A stretch of DNA of 28,854 nt from the IMG/VR virus record IMGVR_UViG_3300005758_000151, positions 1 to 28,854 of that record, one strand, 5' to 3'. Both the position numbers and the translations under genes were made by a program. The notes under the pieces are model-generated. The model worked only from the letters and a program-made list of their open reading frames with translations, was not told the origin of the DNA and did no database searches. Numbering within the stretch: the stretch's first letter is position 1; each line of letters begins with the position of its first letter. Below are positions 149 through 24,507 of this stretch, piece by piece. This DNA comes from a virus. Taxonomy: Duplodnaviria; Caudoviricetes.

Positions 149-1021
149 ATGAATCTTGTTGACTTCGCTCAACACTACTTTGACTCGCACGAATTCGGGA
201 TCAAAGAAAATTCTCAGCGTTGCTATTACCTCCCTGCGGCGCGTCAGTTTGTTCAAGCGACCAACTGCCAGCAAATCAAAGCCATCAACAAAAGCTATGC
301 AAATCAGTTTGTTGATTGGCTCAAGTCTCGCCCGATCTCAGTCACTACTCAGCACACCAGGCGGCGAGCTTTCGCGACCCTCTGGCGAGCTGCGTACGAT
401 GCAGGGGAATGCCCAGTATTCGAGGCATTTCGCAAGATTCGAATCACTAAAAAATCCCCTCGAGCCTGGTCTCGCGAGGATGTGCAAAACTTGTTTGACA
501 CGACCGTGCTCGATCAATCCGAATGGGCTTGGGGTATGAAAGCTGGCACCTATTGGGGATCGCTTTTCTCAGCTGCTTGGGACAGTGGTTTGCGGCTTGG
601 AGATCTGCTATCGATCGAGCTCGACTGGCTCATTCGCGATCGCAAATCAAACACTGCCGTAGTCGTGATGTCCGCCAGCAAAACTGGCAAAGAGCATGTT
701 GTGACCTTTAACGAGCCCACCATGGAGCTCATCGATCGCAGCATGAAAGAGCACCCGCATCGCAAGCTGATTTGGCCACTGCGCAATGCTCGTCGCGAAT
801 TCTATCGCGACGTCAAAAAGCGAATCGAGGCAGTCGGCCTCGAGGGATCATTCCGGTACCTGCGTCGATCGGCAGTCACCTTTGCCGAATCGATCTCGCC
901 AGGCATGGGCACTCGACTCGCTGGCCATCGTGATTCTCGCACCACGCGAGACAGCTACATCGATCCGCTGTTGTTACCCAGCAATCGAGTGATCCTGCCG
1001 GCTCTCAAGAGAGAAGAATAG
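149..1021 (+). CDS. int: Tyrosine recombinase / phage integrase
   Basis: 290 aa. Catalytic motifs GLRLGDLL (Arg I), SKTG (Lys), FRYLRRS (HxxR box with H replaced by R), LAGH, and a C-terminal Tyr in TRDSYID. The N-terminal region resembles a core-binding domain. Confidence 0.9.
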   Translation: MNLVDFAQHYFDSHEFGIKENSQRCYYLPAARQFVQATNCQQIKAINKSYANQFVDWLKSRPISVTTQHTRRRAFATLWRAAYDAGECPVFEAFRKIRITKKSPRAWSREDVQNLFDTTVLDQSEWAWGMKAGTYWGSLFSAAWDSGLRLGDLLSIELDWLIRDRKSNTAVVVMSASKTGKEHVVTFNEPTMELIDRSMKEHPHRKLIWPLRNARREFYRDVKKRIEAVGLEGSFRYLRRSAVTFAESISPGMGTRLAGHRDSRTTRDSYIDPLLLPSNRVILPALKREE

Positions 1022-1137: not shown

Positions 1138-1163
1138 ATCGTGCAGCGTCCATGCTGCACGAT
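1138..1163. terminator. Stem-loop between convergent integrase and tail operon
   Basis: ATCGTGCAGC-gtccat-GCTGCACGAT, a perfect 10-bp stem abutting the stop codon of the minus-strand gene. No clear U-tract. Confidence 0.45.
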
Positions 1164-2287
1164 CAAGCTCGAGTAGCTCGTGGTCCCCTCACCCTGCCCT
1201 CTCCCTCGGGGAGAGGGTTTATCAGCTCGCGATGTTCGCGAACAAACTGCATTCGTTTCTCATGCTCAATTCCCGCTAGGTGCACGATGAATGCCTGGGC
1301 GATTCCGTTGGCAAAGTCGCTTTGCCACGCCTGCCAATTCCAGCGTCGATCAATCTTTTGAAACTTGTCGGCCATCAGGTAATCATGCCAGAGCTGCTCG
1401 CTGCAGTGAGTCAGCGGCAGCGGCTTAGGCGGCATCGCCCAGGATGCCGATCGCTGGCTAGCCAGAATCATACCCGAGTTAATCATTCGCTGCGTCCACT
1501 CGATCCGAGGCAGTCCCTGCGAATCCATCACCCCTTGCATCTCCCAGTGGAATGGCTCCATGCTTGGCACATAATCCGCATCGTCCACGCCGTAGACTTT
1601 CGCTGGATCCGAATGTGATGCGAAAATGTCAGGACAATTTGGCATGAAAAAAAGATCGTTATCAATCCATAGAATCCAGTCGTACTGGTAGACGAAAAAC
1701 GATGCTCGCAATTTGTCCAGCTGCCAAGAATCGTACAATCGATTGCCCAAGCAAACATAATCTGCACCGACTCGCTCAGCGTACGCTCGATGGTTTGGCC
1801 CAGTGAATGCGTGCAGCTCGATCGCCTGCGCCCCAGTTGCCAAGCTCAAGATCAATCGCGGCGCCCGTTGCGGCCCGATGTGTAGCCATTGGGATTTTGC
1901 CTCTTCGATCGTAATGTTTGGCCTGCCAAGTTTTTGATTGACTGCCGATCGGAGTCGATACTTCCAGTCGAAATCGATCGACTCGCCAGGCGGATTCTCG
2001 CGTTTCCATGCCTGATAAAACGGTTCGCATTCGCAATACCTCGGGATAGTCGATTCCCATTGCACAAGCTGCTCGAGCGTATCGACTGAGGTAAACAGCT
2101 TTCGCCAACTGCGTCGCCCATCAAGCACGATCGGCGGCTCATCGTGTGGCATAGATGCGAGTGGTGCAGTGTCTAGGTTAAGCTCTGGCGTCGGCATTAC
2201 GAACTGCGACGCATCAAAAGGCGATCGCATCCGCAGCGACTCCACATAAGCAAGTGCAGCCTCTTTAGACAAAAGCGAATGTGACAT
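1163..2287 (-). CDS. Fusion of a divergent Erv1/ALR-like domain and a GT-A glycosyltransferase (GT34/GT8-like)
   Basis: C-terminal part: LDKL, YDWILWIDND (DxD), INSGMIL, SEQ, RWNWQ, FIVHLAG. N-terminal part: GRRSW, IPRYCEC, NPP, W..RLRSAVNQKLGRP, EA..QW. The start is uncertain (TTG 2344, ATG 2287 or GTG 2245). Confidence 0.75.
   Translation of the reverse strand: MSHSLLSKEAALAYVESLRMRSPFDASQFVMPTPELNLDTAPLASMPHDEPPIVLDGRRSWRKLFTSVDTLEQLVQWESTIPRYCECEPFYQAWKRENPPGESIDFDWKYRLRSAVNQKLGRPNITIEEAKSQWLHIGPQRAPRLILSLATGAQAIELHAFTGPNHRAYAERVGADYVCLGNRLYDSWQLDKLRASFFVYQYDWILWIDNDLFFMPNCPDIFASHSDPAKVYGVDDADYVPSMEPFHWEMQGVMDSQGLPRIEWTQRMINSGMILASQRSASWAMPPKPLPLTHCSEQLWHDYLMADKFQKIDRRWNWQAWQSDFANGIAQAFIVHLAGIEHEKRMQFVREHRELINPLPEGEGRVRGPRATRA
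1185..1217. repeat. CCCCTCACCC..CCCTCTCCC-N3-GGGAGAGGG type palindromic repeat inside a gene 3' end
   Basis: CCCCTCACCCTGCCCTCTCCCTCGGGGAGAGGG with a 9-bp hairpin. It resembles a widespread bacterial interspersed repeat family. Confidence 0.7.
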
Positions 2288-3335
2288 TCCACGAATCCCA
2301 TATAGCTTGCGCAAACGAGTAAGCAGTCGTTTCGCTCTCGACAATTTCTAAGCCACCAGCGTACTGCTGCTGCAGCTGGCACCCTTCACAATCTCCTGCA
2401 AACTCCCAAGCTGTCTCGCGGCCAAAAGTGCGATTCGTAGGCGTTGGGCACGTCGTTGACGGGATAGTCGGTACCGAGTTGACTGGATACACATTGCAGT
2501 GCTGCAGTGCTGCGTGCGCCGTACGATTAAAGCCAAGCGTCTCGTCTGTCAGATCGTCGACGTCTCGACTCATCCAATAAGTGAATGCCGATTGACTAGC
2601 TAGGTTAAGTACAGAGGGCTCGATACTGGTGAGGAAATCGGGCATAGCACAATTCGCATTGGGGAGCAAATCGCATGGAACCGGCTCGCATGTGCTAGGC
2701 GTCGTAATGTTGATGGACTTGGTGCCTATGTACACCGCAGGGTCTCCTACAAACTGACCTGCGCAATCAGCTGCTGGTACTCCCGTACGGTATTGAAAAG
2801 TGTGTGATAGCAAGTGGACACCTGATACCCGGAGCGTCACTCGCCACCGACATGAGTCGTTCGGCAATCGACTTAGGTACACTTGCACGCTATCGAGCAC
2901 CGACCAGTAGTGCCAATGCAGATTGTACACCCAATGCTGGCACGTGGTTATAGAATAAAGCGGTATCCTAGGTTGAGGTACTGAGTTCACTAAACAGAAC
3001 TTCGCATAATCTGTTGTGTTCTCAGCGTAGCTGCGGTATCGGCATCTAATGCCATTCTGCGCAAAAGGATTGTCTGACCACATGCTGCCATTCACGCCGG
3101 CAAACGCATTGCTAACACTGATACCAGCACCGCAGCATTGCGAAGATGTTCCATTCAAAAAAACAGTCGTGTTATATTCAGGGTTGTCTTCGCTGGATAC
3201 CGTAGCTCGGATTCTATCCCATTTCGGTGCACGGCATTTGCCTGTCTTTGATCCGCAGCTGCGGCAGTTATGCCCTAGCCAAAGTTCTTGATCGTTGCAC
3301 CACTTGCACTGATACGCGAGGTTCAACGTGCTCAA
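2265..3335 (-). CDS. Cysteine-rich putative tail-tip / receptor-binding protein
   Basis: 356 aa with 19 Cys, rich in S/T/N and likely beta-rich. It is the last structural position in the tail operon and overlaps the upstream gene by ATGA. Confidence 0.6.
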   Translation of the reverse strand: MSTLNLAYQCKWCNDQELWLGHNCRSCGSKTGKCRAPKWDRIRATVSSEDNPEYNTTVFLNGTSSQCCGAGISVSNAFAGVNGSMWSDNPFAQNGIRCRYRSYAENTTDYAKFCLVNSVPQPRIPLYSITTCQHWVYNLHWHYWSVLDSVQVYLSRLPNDSCRWRVTLRVSGVHLLSHTFQYRTGVPAADCAGQFVGDPAVYIGTKSINITTPSTCEPVPCDLLPNANCAMPDFLTSIEPSVLNLASQSAFTYWMSRDVDDLTDETLGFNRTAHAALQHCNVYPVNSVPTIPSTTCPTPTNRTFGRETAWEFAGDCEGCQLQQQYAGGLEIVESETTAYSFAQAIWDSWNVTFAFV

Positions 3336-4123
3336 GGTATAGTCTCCTCAGGTTGGAGAGGATCAGCAGATTCAACTGTATCATCAACGCACCATGGATT
3401 GACAACCACCCATCGATTATTGAGCAGCATCACTTCGCCACGATCCTCGCTGGCCTGCCATTGAGCAATAGCAAAGCTATCAAACAAAACAAAATCCTCA
3501 GTAAAGCTTTGTATGTTGGTCAGCGTCGCAAGCGATGGTGTTTTCATTTGCTCTTTCAAGCGATAAAACATTCGATTCGACGAGCTATTCAGATCGATCA
3601 GTGCCAGGCCTGTGCCGGTATCGCAGATCTTGCGAGCCACACCCCATACGCCATTGACGGTAACTCGCGATCGAAAATTCGTATCGGCCTGCGTCATTGG
3701 CGAGATCCAGCCAGCCCCAGCGACATGGCAATTACATTCCACCACGCCAGCGACAGCGACTTGGCCCGAGGCGTTTTGAGCGATCGCATCCAGCGTGATA
3801 CCGATCGAAAAGAGACTTCCCTGCAATGCATTTGACTCGGCCAGCGTACGAGGCAGATAGCACGGCCTGAGCGAGTACCATCCCTTGCGACTGTTGCCGA
3901 GCTGAGTAGGCGTCTGATCTGCTGTAAATGTGCCAAGCACGACCGGCGACCCAGGCACTAAATCATATCCACAATCGTTGCGGCCGGTCGCCGATACATA
4001 GGTGATCTCTGTCGGTTTGTTTGGCGTCTGTGTCCCCAGCCTCTGCGAGGGCTCAATAAGGTTATTCCACTCACTCGCAGAGATCTTGGTTTTCTCACCA
4101 GCAAAGCGTCGCCGTGGCAGCAT
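3332..4123 (-). CDS. Putative tail-tip / baseplate protein
   Basis: Likely start MLPRRRFAGEK (ATG 4123), just after the upstream stop at 4126. Contains a GITLDAIAQNASGQVAVAGV segment reminiscent of DUF2190-like beta domains. Assigned by synteny. Confidence 0.55.
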   Translation of the reverse strand: MLPRRRFAGEKTKISASEWNNLIEPSQRLGTQTPNKPTEITYVSATGRNDCGYDLVPGSPVVLGTFTADQTPTQLGNSRKGWYSLRPCYLPRTLAESNALQGSLFSIGITLDAIAQNASGQVAVAGVVECNCHVAGAGWISPMTQADTNFRSRVTVNGVWGVARKICDTGTGLALIDLNSSSNRMFYRLKEQMKTPSLATLTNIQSFTEDFVLFDSFAIAQWQASEDRGEVMLLNNRWVVVNPWCVDDTVESADPLQPEETIP

Positions 4124-4125
4124 GA

Positions 4126-5013
4126 TTACACCGTCAGAGCCAGAGGAGAAAAGTCTGCGGGCTCGATGCCGTAGAGATCTTGCACGTAAACCGCGAGCGG
4201 TCGACGCACGGCTTTGCTCGAGACAATCGCCGACTCCCAATCGATCCACATGTACTGATGCCCGAGCTTGTTAATGCCGGTAATTGATCCAATAGTGATG
4301 CCACTCAAATTCGGCGAGTACAAAAACTCAAAGCTCAGCTCGCGATCTTGAGGATCCAATGGAGGACCTCCCGCAAATGGGTTGTTGATCGCAAAAGATA
4401 AAGCAGCATCGCCCCCAATGAATTGAATTGAGCCTGCAGGAAAGACGCTCATGAAAGTATTGTTGTTGTACTTGCCCACCAGGTTAGCCACTGCCAGCGA
4501 ATAGGCAGGAGTCAAATCAGCACCAGCCATGCGCTGCGTGACGGTGATCGACAGCCCAGGGATGATCGTATCGACGCCCTCGACTTGGCCATCGGAGTTT
4601 ACATTTATCGCACCGCCATAGTCTTTTGCACCGCTTGGAAACTTAACCGTGTTCTTGGCAACAAATTGCTTGATCGTCTGCGGCTTGACCGAGAACGATA
4701 CCCGATAATCGCCGACCGCCTGCAGCTTTTCGCGTTCTCGCGTGCGTAGTTTCGGCTCGCCATACTGAGCGACCGCCTGCCAAGCGTTCGGCCCATCGGG
4801 AACCATATCGATGGTGCGGCAAAGCAATCCATCGATCTCGCCATCGAGCCCGCTCCATAGAGCACCATCGCCTGTGATCAGCGCCGAATAAGCCTCGGGG
4901 CTCGTCGGACAATCCACGATCGACCAAATCAGCTCGCCGCTATCCTCCCCCTCGCCGGAATAGATCAGCTGCGATTTGCCGGAATCCCATAGCGGTATGA
5001 CTCGTGCCGGCAT
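4126..5013 (-). CDS. Putative distal tail / tail-tip protein
   Basis: 295 aa, immediately downstream of the tape measure gene with a TAATG overlap. Confidence 0.55.
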   Translation of the reverse strand: MPARVIPLWDSGKSQLIYSGEGEDSGELIWSIVDCPTSPEAYSALITGDGALWSGLDGEIDGLLCRTIDMVPDGPNAWQAVAQYGEPKLRTREREKLQAVGDYRVSFSVKPQTIKQFVAKNTVKFPSGAKDYGGAINVNSDGQVEGVDTIIPGLSITVTQRMAGADLTPAYSLAVANLVGKYNNNTFMSVFPAGSIQFIGGDAALSFAINNPFAGGPPLDPQDRELSFEFLYSPNLSGITIGSITGINKLGHQYMWIDWESAIVSSKAVRRPLAVYVQDLYGIEPADFSPLALTV

Positions 5014-6974
5014 TAAGCGAATCCCCCTTCCATTTCTTTGAGCCTGGCCAAAATGCTGCCCAGCGTCGTGTTAGCAGTCGTGAGACTCGTCGTGAGTGCT
5101 GGATCCAGCTGAGCTACGATCGACGGTGCTTTCGATCCGACCTGTGAAAATGGATCTCGTGTTGATTGCTCAAGCATCACTTGCGTGCTCTTAGTCGCGA
5201 CCAGAGCACCGGCCATCTCGGCCAGGTACTGCGTCTGAGCTTTGCTCTCAGCCAGCATTTCGGCGTCTAGATCGTACGCACCCGATTGACCCATAAGTGC
5301 TGCAGCAAATCCCGAGAACGTGCCACGCATCGAATCTGAGGCCTTGCCGAGTTGATTATCGGCCTGAGCAGCTACAGGTTGTGCTTTCGCCTCTGGCAGT
5401 TCGACGTCCTTTAAGGTTTCGTCAAGTGTCATACCTGCTGCATCTGCAGCAATAGTCGCAGCCTTTGCTGTTGATGCCGTGAGTGCAGCCTCTAACTCGG
5501 CAATGGCTTTTTCACGATCGGATATATTGGCTCTTGAGGCGGCGTCTCGATCGGCTGCACGGTCGAAAACGCCCTCCCCAAGAGCCGTGTTTTTGTCTAT
5601 GGTGTTTTGCTGTCGCTTCATCTTTTCAGCTTCCACGTCAACGTCAGCGCTCATCAGCCCCCAGAGCTCAATCATGCGATCGACAAAAAACCCGACTACA
5701 TTGTTAAACACTTCCCTAATTGAAGCGAAAGCCATATCAAAACCACCAATGATATAGTTGAGCCAACTGTCCCATGTTGCTCGTAACTCCATAGTTCCTT
5801 TCAAAAAAGCTAACTGTACGCCCTGCCATAGTATCTCTGCTGCTATTTGGAAATTGCCACCTTTCATTGCATCCTGAATGCCTTGGAATACTGGCCCTAC
5901 GATGTCCTGCAGCATTTGAAATTTGCTGCTCAGCCAATCCATGGCCTTGCCACCTACGCCTGATGTGTAGGTAAAGTAACCAGCCAAGCCAATTAGCCCC
6001 ACCACTACGGCAGCGATCGCGACTCCTACGCCACCGGTGAGAATCGTACCGAGTACTCCCATCACGGTACCGGCTGCAGCAGATACGCTCGTGACGACTC
6101 CGATCGCTACCGACAGACCATAGGCTAATGCGGCAGCAGTGACAAAGCCTGCACCAAGTAGGCCCAGTGCAGCAGCACCGAGCACGATAGCAATGACAAG
6201 GCCTTTGTTCGCAGCGATAAAGTTACGCACCTGCACCACGCCTGCAGTCATCAGACCAAGCACGGCCGTAAACATCGGCGCGACCGTTGCCCCGATCGTA
6301 TTGACCAGGCCCGAGAATGAGGTGCCTAGCATGTCGATCGAGTCACCGAGTGCCGCAGCTGCAGCAGCATCCTCGCCGCTCATTTCGGCCCCAAGCTTTT
6401 TGGCTTCCGCTCGCAGTGCATCAATACCCTTTGAGCCAGTGCTCAGCAGCGGTAGCAGATTCGCACCGCTCTTGCCGAATACCTCCATCGCAGCCGAAAC
6501 GCGAGCGGCTGGATCTTGGATCGCTGCGATCTTGTCTGCGATCGCAGCAAACTGTTCATCGGGGCTCATGCTTGCCAGCGTTGCCGGATCCAGCCCGAGT
6601 TCCTCGAGCACTTTGGATCCACCAGCGATACCCTGCTGCATTTTGCGGATGCCCTTCTCAATATCCTCGATTGAGGATCCACTCATCTTGGCAGCATAGC
6701 CAAGGCTAGAGATAGCCTCGGTACTGGCACCGGTGCGTTGTGCAATATCATCGATCGCACCGCCAGCGTCGGCAAAGGACTTGATAGCTAAGCCTACTCC
6801 ACCGGCACCTAGAACAGCCCCAACTCCCAGCTTGGCCGAATTGCCAATAGATGCAGCACTCGCAGCAAAGCTCGATAGTTGTTTTTTCGCTGCAGCGATA
6901 CCTGCTGATAGCTTATTGCGAATCAGCTCGACGGTGATCGCTGCGCGTCCGGCTTGAATGTCTTTACCTGCCAC
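5013..6974 (-). CDS. Tail tape measure protein
   Basis: 653 aa, Ala/Gly-rich and helical. Has tape-measure-like segments (SPDEQFAAIADKI, AMEVFGKSGANLLPLL) and central hydrophobic stretches. Confidence 0.9.
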   Translation of the reverse strand: MAGKDIQAGRAAITVELIRNKLSAGIAAAKKQLSSFAASAASIGNSAKLGVGAVLGAGGVGLAIKSFADAGGAIDDIAQRTGASTEAISSLGYAAKMSGSSIEDIEKGIRKMQQGIAGGSKVLEELGLDPATLASMSPDEQFAAIADKIAAIQDPAARVSAAMEVFGKSGANLLPLLSTGSKGIDALRAEAKKLGAEMSGEDAAAAAALGDSIDMLGTSFSGLVNTIGATVAPMFTAVLGLMTAGVVQVRNFIAANKGLVIAIVLGAAALGLLGAGFVTAAALAYGLSVAIGVVTSVSAAAGTVMGVLGTILTGGVGVAIAAVVVGLIGLAGYFTYTSGVGGKAMDWLSSKFQMLQDIVGPVFQGIQDAMKGGNFQIAAEILWQGVQLAFLKGTMELRATWDSWLNYIIGGFDMAFASIREVFNNVVGFFVDRMIELWGLMSADVDVEAEKMKRQQNTIDKNTALGEGVFDRAADRDAASRANISDREKAIAELEAALTASTAKAATIAADAAGMTLDETLKDVELPEAKAQPVAAQADNQLGKASDSMRGTFSGFAAALMGQSGAYDLDAEMLAESKAQTQYLAEMAGALVATKSTQVMLEQSTRDPFSQVGSKAPSIVAQLDPALTTSLTTANTTLGSILARLKEMEGGFA

Positions 6975-9914: not shown

Positions 9915-10265
9915 CTATAGTTGTTTGGAATGAATTCGCAGCACCGTGCGATGCTGGCCTGAGTATCGATAAGGTTTTTCCCCACCTGGTGCGAGCACTC
10001 GATAGTTGCTCTTTCCGTCATTAACCTGGTCGCCATCCTGCGGTGTGCCAAACCGGGATTCGAATTTGGAAACGTCGGTGATGAGAAAATCTTGGGTCTC
10101 GACTCGATGAATTGCACCGTCGACGTCCTCGCTCTCAAATGTCGATGTTCCTCGCGTCGCATCGATCTTTAATGTGACCGCACCGCGAGAGTAGGTAATG
10201 CAGTCGCTCGCATGCTGGCCCAATTGCTGAGCCAGCCACTGCGAGCCAGCTTGCAGCATGTTCAT
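9915..10265 (-). CDS. Head-tail joining / head closure protein (gpFII-like)
   Basis: 116 aa with a pattern ITY.RG...DFLI...PQDGDQV...YRVL...LRIHSK typical of head-closure beta barrels. Confidence 0.7.
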   Translation of the reverse strand: MNMLQAGSQWLAQQLGQHASDCITYSRGAVTLKIDATRGTSTFESEDVDGAIHRVETQDFLITDVSKFESRFGTPQDGDQVNDGKSNYRVLAPGGEKPYRYSGQHRTVLRIHSKQL

Positions 10266-10540
10266 TAGGACTCCTCGCCGAGCAGCTCGTACGCCTCAGC
10301 GATCGCGGCAGCGTCAGCCTTGGCTTCGTACTTTTGTTGGAGTACTCGCTGGACTCTGAGCAGCTTGCGATCGAGCTCAGAGTCAGCCTGCGGCCTGGCG
10401 TACTGGACGATCGGCTGCATTGGTTGCGGTTGAACCATGGGTGCCATCTGCTGAGCGGCTTTTTTTGGCTTGATAATCAACCATGCGAATGCACCGACGA
10501 TCAGTGCCACAAATCCGTAAACGATTACATTGAATACCAT
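10265..10540 (-). CDS. Small membrane-anchored protein
   Basis: N-terminal transmembrane helix, Pro/Gln linker and C-terminal helix. Confidence 0.65.
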   Translation of the reverse strand: MVFNVIVYGFVALIVGAFAWLIIKPKKAAQQMAPMVQPQPMQPIVQYARPQADSELDRKLLRVQRVLQQKYEAKADAAAIAEAYELLGEES

Positions 10541-10548
10541 GGCGCAGC

Positions 10549-11544
10549 CTATCGGGTTTTAATGAGGTAGATGATGACAAAGGTACCGATCGCGATGATG
10601 AGGATCTGGAAAAGAAACTCAGTCGGCGAGAAGATCGCGTTAAGTAATCCCTCGACGGTATCCTTTGGCTTGTCTCGCAGTCGATCGAGTAGCGGGAATC
10701 GCGAATCAGGCGGACATGATCCATCTTTGCACTGCTCGACATAATCGGGTGCGGGATGCGTCGCAGTCTGCGAGCCCACTGGTGGCTGCGGCTGTGCAGG
10801 CAGCGGGCTGTTGTTGCCTGCCATGATCGACTGATGCAGCTTGGTCGCGTCGCTGATTTCCGTCACCAAAGCGGCTGCTGTGGTCGGTAGTGCGTGCCGA
10901 TCAGCGGCGTAGACATGCCCACCATTGGGTGCAGTGACCAAGCAGACTGGAAACGCATCAGGCGGAATGAGTGCTGCATATCGCGACCGATAGAGCGGGT
11001 TGTCTGCGGTGTAGGTATTGTGGTTGCAGGTAGTCGTCCATTTAAGCAGCGTCGCATGCTCTTTGAACCACGATTGCAGAGATTGGCTTTGCTGATCATT
11101 GTTGACAAATAGCTCGATCGAGTATCGCTCCTGAGTCTTTACCGGCTGCATGTTGCTCGGTTGCTTAGGTTGCGTATTGTTGGCCGGCGTCACGTTTGGC
11201 ATCGGCTGCGCTGGCACAGTGCCAGGCGGGCAATTGCCATCAGGACAATTCGGCGATCGATAGGGCGTTATGCGTCGGCCCAGGATTTGCTTTTTGATCT
11301 CGTCGCGTGCAGCATCGTTGACCGGTAGCGTGTTGGGAGATCCGTATCGATTGCTGTCGAAATTGATACCACCAGGCGGTGCGGCAGGCGTCGCAGTCTG
11401 TGGCGAGTCCAGAAGATACTGCTCCACCTTTGGCAGCGTGCGCTGCACGGTACCAAAGATGATCGCGTGAGCGACCATCGCAGCGATGAGGCCAGCACTG
11501 AGAGCAATCTTAAATCGTTTTGGGTTGTCGCAGCATTCAGTCAT
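10549..11544 (-). CDS. Membrane protein with two C-x-D-G-x-C-P-P motifs and a possible thioredoxin-like domain
   Basis: N- and C-terminal hydrophobic helices. CPDGNCPP and CKDGSCPP flank a globular domain (YSIELFV...FPVCLVTAPNG). Confidence 0.65.
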   Translation of the reverse strand: MTECCDNPKRFKIALSAGLIAAMVAHAIIFGTVQRTLPKVEQYLLDSPQTATPAAPPGGINFDSNRYGSPNTLPVNDAARDEIKKQILGRRITPYRSPNCPDGNCPPGTVPAQPMPNVTPANNTQPKQPSNMQPVKTQERYSIELFVNNDQQSQSLQSWFKEHATLLKWTTTCNHNTYTADNPLYRSRYAALIPPDAFPVCLVTAPNGGHVYAADRHALPTTAAALVTEISDATKLHQSIMAGNNSPLPAQPQPPVGSQTATHPAPDYVEQCKDGSCPPDSRFPLLDRLRDKPKDTVEGLLNAIFSPTEFLFQILIIAIGTFVIIYLIKTR

Positions 11545-11555
11545 TTGTCTGTCCC

Positions 11556-12416
11556 TTAGAACAGTTGGACGGGCTCATACGAGCGGAATGGTGGCGGGCT
11601 TGGTGGATCGCCGAGGACGGTCAGTCCAAAGCCTCCATAGCTCGCCCAGAGTCGGTGAAATTGATTTTTCTCGGTGTACTCGAATCGCTCGGGAAAGTTG
11701 TTGTCGAGTACCACGGCATGAGTGCGGCCGTTGATTTCGACCCATCCGCAAAAGGTGCATGCGTGCGAGGGCTTCCACCAAATCACAGCTCCTCTGCGAG
11801 TCTCGTGCGCGTAGTCGAGCAGAGCTAAATTCGCTTGCTCGGTGTAGGCGTATTTGACTCCCTCGCGATCCAGTCGCTCGCGAAGGCGTGATGCGTACTC
11901 GCCCCCCGAGTACTTGCTACGCCAGGTGCGAGCGAGATCGAATTCGTTTTGCCAGTGCAGCATGTTGACCGTGCTGGCATGTGCACATGATCCCTCGCGG
12001 CCCGATGGGCCACCGAGCCAGTTACGGACTCGGATCGATACAGGCGGATTGATCGAGGGAGTCTCGGCCCGCGGTGCGGCGAGAGCTCGGTACTCGAGCG
12101 GTGCGGTATCGCAGCCTAGTGCGATGCCCAGGCCCACACAACAAAGCACCAAAGCGACAACTCGAAACTTTTGAGCGGGTGGCTTGGGATCGTTGTCTTT
12201 GGTGTTTTGCATTTTGGTCAGGGCGTAGGTGACTTGTGCAATAATGATGATCAGGATCGACAAAGGCCAGATCCATGCTGCCATGGCGATCAGCAGCGTG
12301 AGTACTGGCTTGGTCAAGTTTTGACGCAGTTCGGATTCGCGGATCCATTTCGATAGGCCCACGAGTCGATTGACTGCGGCGATGATTCGAAATGCGATTT
12401 GGATCCAATGCGTCAT
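11556..12416 (-). CDS. Membrane-anchored papain-fold (C39-like) cysteine peptidase
   Basis: Candidate triad in EGSCAHAS, KPSHAC and LDNN. Two N-terminal hydrophobic segments, the second ending in the lipobox-like IALGC. Confidence 0.65.
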   Translation of the reverse strand: MTHWIQIAFRIIAAVNRLVGLSKWIRESELRQNLTKPVLTLLIAMAAWIWPLSILIIIIAQVTYALTKMQNTKDNDPKPPAQKFRVVALVLCCVGLGIALGCDTAPLEYRALAAPRAETPSINPPVSIRVRNWLGGPSGREGSCAHASTVNMLHWQNEFDLARTWRSKYSGGEYASRLRERLDREGVKYAYTEQANLALLDYAHETRRGAVIWWKPSHACTFCGWVEINGRTHAVVLDNNFPERFEYTEKNQFHRLWASYGGFGLTVLGDPPSPPPFRSYEPVQLF

Positions 12417-16360: not shown

Positions 16361-17635
16361 CTATGGTGTTAGGTTGCGTACGTCGATCTGGATTTCGTTG
16401 AGCTTGTTTAGAACTGCCGCATTGTCGGAGTCGCCGATAGACATCAGACTGGTCACTACCGTATTCGCTTCTAGAATTTGAGCTTCGGTAGTTAAGTGCA
16501 CGTTGTCAAGAAGAAACGATCCGCCCGCTGAGGTCCATCCCAATCGGTCGTTAGTCAGTCTTCGCAGATTGAGAAACGCCACGTTGGCGTCTAGGTCCGT
16601 TAATTGCTTAGCAGCTAGGTTGTAGTCGGACAGATTCGTTTGTTGTTGCGTTGTCAGCGCTGTCCTGGCAACATCCGGCACAATAAGAAAAGTCTGATCC
16701 GCTCCCAGCCAAGTTCTTAGAGTAGCGATAAGGGTCTGAAGATTAGTCCGATACTGATCTGGAGTGACATTGTTGCCACTGTCATTGGCACCGAATTGTA
16801 GGATTACCAAATCAAATGGTCCCATAGCTGCAGTCGCTCGTCCTGCATTAGCATGGCTCGCTAGAACATTCGTTACTTGATAACCTCCTGCACCCGCCGG
16901 TGTTAGCGCGATTCCTCGTGCGTTCGCATGCCGAAATCTGGCGGATGTGATTCTTATAGGAGTGGAAGTGGCACTGCGAATTGCAATTTGCGCATAGTGA
17001 TTAGTGGCATGCTGGGTGTAGCGTTGCGTTCTTACAATGTAATCATTTGCTGCGTTAAGCGCCCATCCGCTTGTAGTGGTAAGCGTTGGACCTGCAGCAA
17101 AGTAATTAGTTGCATTCGTCGCTAAGGTGTTAAATATCAACTGCGCTTCAGCACCGCCGCTTGTGTCCCTTTGAAAAAGGAAATCAATATCCAGATCGCC
17201 TGTTACGTCCTGATACCATTGGCGACTAGGGAAATTGGTACCCACCAAAGACGCATCGGGAAGTTGCATCCAAAGCGGCCCGTTGTCGGCATTTACATAA
17301 GAACGTGTAACGAAACCAGGCAATAATTGGTCCGTAGTGCTAACTTGTGCTCCGCCCGATATGTTTCCTCTCGCCAAGAAAACTGCAACTGGTGCGCCGC
17401 CTCCAAAACTCGACTGTGGCAACCATCGTGTTTCGCATCTGTTGCCGTAGTAACTCTGAAAAGCTTGATTGATCGCGGGTATATAGACGCTCCCAGATCC
17501 CCCCGGCGCAGTCTCTTGGCTGTCACCTAACATCAACCATCGACGCACGCCGGTGTACGCTTGATTGATTGAGTTTAGAATCTTTTGCCTAGCGTAAGGC
17601 TGAGCAACAAAATATGGTAGTGATGAAAAGCTCAT
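16361..17635 (-). CDS. SGNH/GDSL hydrolase domain protein
   Basis: All four blocks are visible: LGDSQ, GAGG, QFGAND and DNVH. A beta-rich insertion separates blocks I and II. Confidence 0.85.
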   Translation of the reverse strand: MSFSSLPYFVAQPYARQKILNSINQAYTGVRRWLMLGDSQETAPGGSGSVYIPAINQAFQSYYGNRCETRWLPQSSFGGGAPVAVFLARGNISGGAQVSTTDQLLPGFVTRSYVNADNGPLWMQLPDASLVGTNFPSRQWYQDVTGDLDIDFLFQRDTSGGAEAQLIFNTLATNATNYFAAGPTLTTTSGWALNAANDYIVRTQRYTQHATNHYAQIAIRSATSTPIRITSARFRHANARGIALTPAGAGGYQVTNVLASHANAGRATAAMGPFDLVILQFGANDSGNNVTPDQYRTNLQTLIATLRTWLGADQTFLIVPDVARTALTTQQQTNLSDYNLAAKQLTDLDANVAFLNLRRLTNDRLGWTSAGGSFLLDNVHLTTEAQILEANTVVTSLMSIGDSDNAAVLNKLNEIQIDVRNLTP

Positions 17636-23844: not shown

Positions 23845-24507
23845 CTATTCGGCTATTTTGTCGGTCAAGGCATCGAAAATCGATTGGTCTCTGAGTTTTT
23901 TCATCAATTCAGATAGCAATTGTGAGATTCTGGACTCGCTGAGACCCAATATCATGCCAATGTTTCTCAGAGTGACATCGTGATAGAAACGCAGATAGAG
24001 AAGATTCTGCTCGAGTAAACTGAGCCCCTTGGTAGCCTCGCGGAATGTATCGGCCTCTTTGATCGAGCATCGGCTGCTGCGAGCTCTTGGATGATGGTAC
24101 TGCTTTTCGAGCGTACCGAGAACGGTGGGCTGTCTAGTTCTGACTCCTACTTTTTCGAGATCCTCATCGGTCGGTGGGCGTTGCAGTTTCTGAGTCAGAT
24201 AGGCGATCGCTTTATCTCGCTCAGTGGCCATCTGGCGTGATCGTCGCGAAAGATGATCAGCGTTGCGGATCGCGTCCAGCATTTCGCTATGGCAGCAGTG
24301 AGCGATCCAAGTCGTAATCGATCGGCCCTGTGATTCATCGAATGATCGTATCGCACGCAGTAATCCGACATGGGCAGCACTTTCGAGTGCATCGAGATCC
24401 CATTTGTTGCATTTCTTCCATAGCTTTCGTGCGAGCGAAATGGCGAGGCGTTGATGCTTGGTCGCGAGTTCGGCCTCGCGTTGGGGATCGGTTTGTTTGG
24501 CTCTCAT
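23845..24507 (-). CDS. Sigma-70 family sigma factor, FliA/WhiG-like
   Basis: Region 2 (DALESAAHVGLLRAIRSFDESQG..ITTW...EMLDAIR..DHLSR), region 3 (LTQKLQRPPTDEDL) and region 4 HTH (TLRNIGMILGLSESRISQL). Confidence 0.92.
   Translation of the reverse strand: MRAKQTDPQREAELATKHQRLAISLARKLWKKCNKWDLDALESAAHVGLLRAIRSFDESQGRSITTWIAHCCHSEMLDAIRNADHLSRRSRQMATERDKAIAYLTQKLQRPPTDEDLEKVGVRTRQPTVLGTLEKQYHHPRARSSRCSIKEADTFREATKGLSLLEQNLLYLRFYHDVTLRNIGMILGLSESRISQLLSELMKKLRDQSIFDALTDKIAE

Follow-up and report, generated by a model that had tools for sequence, protein, structure and literature searches.

A histidine-less Erv/ALR-like domain fused to a glycosyltransferase at the tail end of a probable planctomycete phage

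Introduction

Erv flavin enzymes make disulfide bonds in eukaryotes and giant viruses. Compact viral forms are pB119L of African swine fever virus (PDB 3GWL), the mimivirus R596 core (3GWN) and a predicted oxidase of Yasminevirus (A0A5K0U929). PMC3616962 gives one His and two Asn as the hallmark of Erv domains, and describes the helix-1 and helix-4 His as coplanar and stacked on the adenine of flavin adenine dinucleotide (FAD); PMC4721541 names 13 FAD-binding residues in yeast Erv1. A literature search, which most subscription journals and all supplements lay beyond, found no published phage Erv. Here we analyse such a domain in the 28,854-nucleotide virus record IMGVR_UViG_3300005758_000151 (the window), for which a preliminary description had proposed an Erv/ALR-like domain N-terminal to a DxD glycosyltransferase, either as a variant enzyme or as a non-catalytic docking domain.

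A miniature Erv fold that departs from the family signature

The Erv-fold domain is real and homologous to the family. Built from 15 close relatives, a profile aligned with ALR over the full length (E = 3.8e-4), and one built from 124 sequences (alignment A4) matched each of 19 Erv-family chains (best E = 2.9e-15); the single domain sequence alone reached only E = 0.28 against ALR, below significance, and had no Pfam match. Structure prediction gave five helices, a four-helix bundle plus a fifth helix (predicted local distance difference test score, pLDDT, 85.8), and in Foldseek searches with this model the high-probability rows were all Erv, as were the top six VIA rows. The motifs of the preliminary description lie on the minus strand as proposed: GRRSWRKLF (aa 76-84; 2119-2093), CEC (aa 104-106; 2035-2027) and RSAVNQKLG (aa 132-140; 1951-1925), then W153, all N-terminal to the glycosyltransferase IDND motif (aa 227-230; 1666-1655). 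Residues are numbered throughout from the codon at 2344, where the longest open reading frame (ORF; 1163-2344, 393 aa) begins; the protein itself most likely starts at the ATG at 2287, as do homologues P0003, P0004 and P0006.

Key residues of the domain are G76, R77, W80, F84, C104-x-C106, W127, K128, Y129, R132, S133, V135, N136 and W153, among which the departures from the family already remarked on are borne out. The redox motif is CxC and not the flavin-proximal CxxC, with C106 at the start of predicted helix 3, a position that corresponds to the flavin-proximal cysteine. F84 replaces the first conserved His, W80 being retained, and R132 replaces the second, so the helix-4 H-N-x-x-N hallmark reads R132-S133-A-V-N136, with the second Asn alone retained. 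On present evidence the domain appears to work like an Erv, but lacking these three sequence hallmarks it is not yet a canonical member.

A derived clade without the adenine-stacking histidines

A profile search of 1.84 billion representatives returned 572 proteins at E <= 0.001. Our family sample comprised 164 domains, the best 150 of the 572 and 14 closer ones, and over-represents the His-less type because the seed was His-less. The HNxVN versions for which the preliminary description had proposed looking do exist among phage relatives, with the second His kept in 115 of the 164 domains and the first His also in 111 of these (1 Tyr, 3 gaps). Lys or Arg stands at the second His in the other 49, with Phe at the first in 46 (1 Val, 2 gaps). 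CxxC is present in only five domains, alongside 149 with CxC, 8 with CxxxC and 2 fragments; as CxC is usual in both His-keeping (107/115) and His-less (42/49) domains, it is no sign of decay. Both cysteines are found in 47/47 complete His-less domains, the two without them being fragments that lack that half, and core identity within the group averages 50% (lowest 35%).

Lys128 occurs in 48/49 His-less versus 8/115 His-keeping domains, position 129 is aromatic (W/Y/H) in 49/49 His-less domains, and the Lys of the KLGKP motif is mostly lost from this group (7/35 His-less representatives versus 87/115 His-keeping). In a quick-search tree of 161 rows (three fragments dropped), the His-less domains form one side of a branch with a support of 98 (Shimodaira-Hasegawa-like approximate likelihood ratio test, SH-aLRT), which persisted with support 94 when six trait columns were removed. 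Loss of the His residues defines a derived clade, to which the window's domain belongs. Because the change happened once, the co-occurring traits are a single event and their later conservation is what counts. Most of the eight His-keeping members with Lys128, one of which has Tyr at the first His, adjoin the His-less group in the tree, which suggests a stepwise path to the His-less form.

No Erv besides the His-less copy was found in any of 4 other virus records, of which 3 reach at least 95% completeness, and the window record (28.9 kb, estimated completeness 74%) holds one Erv only. Among 401 genomes of the host class discussed below, which may be incomplete and for each of which 11 candidates were scored, an Erv domain turned up in only 2. 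The His-less Erv therefore replaces the His-keeping enzyme one for one, with no helper role. Codon comparison with L002 (Erv domain, nonsynonymous rate dN 0.21 and synonymous rate dS 1.69; glycosyltransferase, dN 0.06 and dS 0.99) shows the fusion gene to be under purifying selection.

We placed the 13 Erv1 FAD contacts on the window's domain by spacing, with constant offsets per segment and not from a printed alignment. Six are identical (G76, R77, W80, C106, V135 and W153), three similar (Y103, Y110 and R141) and the others changed (Y129, R132, I144 and Q152), positions 144 and 152 being changed in most of the His-keeping phage Ervs as well. At the isoalloxazine end (G76, W80, C106, F109/Y110, V135, N136 and W153) conservation is at least as strong as in His-keeping relatives, and five pocket positions carry on average 3.1 basic residues in His-less versus 1.6 in His-keeping domains. 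Judged from these alignments, the changes specific to the clade are concentrated at the adenine/phosphate end, which gains basic residues, and the flavin-ring side remains intact; a rebuilt pocket fits this pattern better than an abandoned one.

A cysteine-rich tail gene as the conserved partner

The conserved partner of the Erv is the upstream cysteine-rich gene, not the glycosyltransferase. The gene directly upstream of the His-less Erv has 14-27 cysteines (~4-7%) in 11/11 loci, window included (duplicates and near-duplicates L003-L005, L010, L012, L015 and L018 excluded), and a cysteine-rich gene directly precedes the Erv in 79/80 His-keeping loci (58/59 distinct), the exception being cut by a contig end. 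These partners fall into several groups with no detectable similarity between them, and the neighbours of the locus vary: tape-measure phages, phages in which long genes poor in cysteine come behind, and a Mu-like region are all represented. The pairing is thus maintained although the partners are unrelated. In P0102, a cysteine-rich domain and a C-terminal Erv, that is, presumed substrate and enzyme, form one chain.

Family searches with the partner in the window gave no match. In three close phages 18 of its 19 cysteines are invariant, compared with 148 of 337 other columns and 10 of 12 tryptophans; paired CxxC motifs stand at the N-terminus, and the 18 invariant cysteines are distributed along the chain, most of them without a paired neighbour in the sequence. 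The fusion gene, read from ATG 2287, shares 23 bases with this ORF.

Glycosyltransferase domain and other fusions

The glycosyltransferase domain has the GT-A fold and DxD motif that had been proposed, with D228 and D230 invariant in 14 sequences. Its best structural match, ahead by 3 Z units, is the capsid glycosyltransferase domain of Paramecium bursaria chlorella virus 1 (PBCV-1; PDB 2P6W, which we take to be A64R). The window's domain scored 11.6 bits (E = 0.21) against a cut-off of 24.3 for PF01501 (GT8); scores in relatives reach E = 4e-7, and P0150 passes the cut-off with 30.3.

Among the matches listed, this glycosyltransferase type is fused to an Erv in 13 cases, 6 of them His-keeping, and other Erv fusions involve a second unnamed type (6), a phosphoribosyltransferase-like module (3) and GT4 (1). 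Close relatives P0009 and P0010 are stand-alone Ervs, and in 12 of 19 control prophage regions glycosyltransferase families lie directly behind tail genes (of the 105 ORFs listed, 58 selected by eye were scanned). Because the fusion partners vary, stand-alone relatives exist and glycosyltransferases are common at tail ends, the fusion is best read as the joining of habitual neighbours, which would require no chemical coupling.

Several further arrangements were seen. Following a cysteine-rich gene, L016:1333-2613, P0043, P0073 and P0084 combine an Erv with a phosphoribosyltransferase-like and an FDxDG (HAD-like) domain, and a sulfotransferase follows the Erv-glycosyltransferase fusion in L009 (6021-6662) and in L013, which also has a GT2. 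Glycosyltransferases, FkbM methyltransferases, sulfotransferases, 2-oxoglutarate-Fe (2OG-Fe) oxygenases and radical SAM genes crowd directly behind the tail genes of the planctomycete-class prophages L105-L124; planctomycete phages may often equip their virions with elaborate glycans.

Proposed mechanism and alternatives

With a confidence slightly above even, we propose that the protein is a flavin-dependent cytoplasmic thiol oxidase that forms disulfides in the upstream cysteine-rich tail protein, its second domain glycosylating the virion. This explanation has its observed footing in the fold, motifs, fusion, gene order, clade and purifying selection, and borrows every chemical step from Erv and GT-A biochemistry. 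The protein would be made late, its translation coupled to that of the cysteine-rich gene through the overlap. C104-C106 would accept electrons from substrate thiols, and C106 would hand them to a flavin held by G76, R77, W80, Y110, V135, N136 and W153, and the flavin to O2. With the adenine-stacking His pair replaced by F84 and R132, and a new K128 one helical turn off, aromatic and cation contacts would hold the adenine/phosphate end, or else the cofactor would be flavin mononucleotide (FMN). The DxD domain would move sugar from a nucleotide sugar onto a virion protein or glycan. An outright switch from FAD to FMN, with Phe filling the adenine site and two new helix-4 basic residues clamping the terminal phosphate, is an unlikely version; if true, no smaller disulfide-forming flavoenzyme would be known, and with the virion glycosyltransferase attached to it one phage protein would combine the two chemistries by which giant viruses mature their particles.

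Against a tight coupling of oxidase and tail protein stand the regions that follow the homologous tail gene in genomes of the planctomycete class. Of 20 such regions 19 were usable and Erv was found in none of these, and four have tail proteins of 19-25 cysteines in 330 residues, so cysteine-rich tail proteins can do without an Erv. Small cysteine-motif proteins occupy the Erv slot of Erv-less prophages at L123:2895-3467 and in L108 (~3500-3830, tail orientation); these and the DUF6171 or CxxCxxCC domains fused to some Ervs may be alternative redox or metal helpers.

A variant enzyme is favoured over a docking domain because the cysteines are kept in all complete His-less domains at ~50% mean identity and the domain is the sole Erv in 3/3 near-complete records. 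The catalytically dead pseudo-Erv of QSOX, described in PMC3616962, is a precedent for a non-catalytic domain that would tether the glycosyltransferase to the tail protein, with CxC serving as a structural disulfide, and the full-length model (predicted template modelling score, pTM, 0.81) is consistent with a packed two-domain protein. Yet 38 of the 49 His-less members are short (<=170 aa) and stand alone (one is a fragment of the window's protein), so their function cannot be to dock a glycosyltransferase; the near-complete records contain no intact Erv alongside, and the same glycosyltransferase type sits on His-keeping Ervs too (6/13). We consider docking very improbable. Equally improbable would be a CxC that binds a metal or iron-sulfur cluster for delivery to a tail protein with metal-ligand cysteines, not disulfides. 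The paired CxxC motifs of the partner, an N-terminal CxC..C..H motif in 8/49 His-less members and the fusions to CxxCxxCC domains (P0063, P0065, P0071, P0074 and P0099) or DUF6171 (P0158), 6 of 30 scanned, would suit it, but these fusions all occur in His-keeping members, the invariant partner cysteines are spread and mostly unpaired, and the Erv pocket residues would have no role.

Loss of the flavin altogether, leaving a cofactor-free dithiol/disulfide carrier or isomerase-chaperone re-oxidized by a host oxidant or air, seems rather doubtful. Both adenine-stacking His and one Asn are replaced, F84 and the aromatic residue at 129 could fill the pocket, and the cysteines stay invariant in the CxC spacing known from the shuttles of cellular Ervs (PMC3509050). 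What speaks for the flavin is the conservation of the isoalloxazine end and the added basic residues, which fit a phosphate-bearing ligand. Doubtful, too, but a little less so, is that the Erv assignment holds while the glycosyltransferase acts on the host surface, masking receptors in the lysogen, or on a small molecule. The operon end beside an integrase, where this gene lies, is a usual site of accessory genes, and the GT-A matches include the lipopolysaccharide (LPS)/polysaccharide enzymes LgtC and WbbM. The domain is, however, in frame with a late-operon gene, the model has no visible membrane segment, the best structural match is a capsid glycosyltransferase, and glycosyltransferases directly follow tail genes in most control regions.

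These phages appear to carry an Erv that exists in hundreds of divergent forms. By keeping the redox cysteines and dropping residues regarded as invariant, the His-less clade offers a natural test of which features an Erv requires for flavin binding, and a copy in a complete Pirellulaceae chromosome opens the module to study in a host with a name. An oxidase of 90 residues that is suited to the bacterial cytoplasm could also be of use for producing disulfide-bonded proteins.

Phage setting

The window encodes an integrase, sigma factor, terminase, lambda-type portal, protease-capsid and tape measure protein, a gene set indicating a temperate long-tailed phage. The fusion gene is the final gene of the late operon and faces the integrase (Table 1). 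The host is probably a planctomycete, since 28 of 201 genomes from the class that includes a Pirellulaceae strain match tail ORF 4126-5013 (one class searched, without a control class) and the complete chromosome of that strain holds 2 copies of the Erv domain.

Table 1. Features at the tail end of the window
Feature	Position	Strand	Basis or remark
Tyrosine integrase	149..1021	+	Convergent on fusion gene; end of late operon
Erv-glycosyltransferase fusion gene, 374 aa from ATG 2287	1163..2287	-	ORF and homologue starts; full-length model pLDDT 89.9, pTM 0.81
GT-A fold glycosyltransferase domain; DxD, N-x-G, EQ, WN and H-x-A/G motifs	1232..1864	-	Structure prediction and alignment
Miniature Erv/ALR five-helix domain, His-less (FK) clade	1883..2134	-	Profile, alignment and structure prediction
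CxC dithiol, C104 and C106	2027..2035	-	Invariant in alignment A4 (n = 124)
Cysteine-rich protein, 356 aa, 19 Cys (5.3%)	2265..3335	-	End of tail module; putative substrate
Two unnamed upstream tail ORFs	3332-4249, 4126-5013	-	
Tape measure gene	5013-6974	-	

Inside the last codons of the fusion gene (ORF C-terminus 1163-1230) lies a 9-bp GC-rich hairpin (1197-1217; z -2.5, with 2 of 200 shuffles equally good), presumably resembling a repetitive extragenic palindromic (REP)-like element read in frame. Stand-alone Erv P0009 has the same C-terminal peptide, and L001 and L002 are without it; the hairpin may mark the point of glycosyltransferase gain or loss. Elsewhere, the phage sigma-70 factor (23845-24507), upstream of the terminase, is a candidate late-gene activator. 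A GDSL/SGNH hydrolase gene (16361-17635), otherwise tail-protein-like, occupies an unusual site between portal and protease-capsid genes. At the expected lysis-gene site, 10265-12416 holds three ORFs with N-terminal hydrophobic segments and without a family match, one of them, of 286 aa, with Cys/His motifs that look conserved by eye and could be those of a peptidase.

Comparison with known systems

Set against the compact viral Ervs, the domain described here belongs to a bacteriophage, has CxC in place of CxxC, has both His and one Asn replaced and is fused to a glycosyltransferase. Its stretch from helix 1 to the dithiol is ~12 residues shorter than that of ALR (26 vs 38). It resembles cellular Erv1, ALR and Erv2 (PF04777) in its profile match (E = 2.9e-15) and in the 6 identical and 3 similar of the 13 listed FAD contacts placed by spacing, but has neither a Pfam match nor a shuttle disulfide, and its adenine-end residues are changed. 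Identity of the second domain to the PBCV-1 capsid glycosyltransferase and to GT8/GT34-like GT-A enzymes is 15-18%. As in the QSOX pseudo-Erv, an Erv fold departs from the catalytic signature; the latter pairs with an active Erv in one chain, whereas the cysteines of the phage domain are invariant and the window yielded no second Erv. With the His-keeping phage Ervs (115/164) the domain shares CxC, the short bundle, the site after a cysteine-rich tail gene and the kinds of fusion; these relatives retain W-x3-H, H-N-x-V-N and the phosphate-side Lys, whereas the window's domain belongs to the Phe/Lys-Arg clade.
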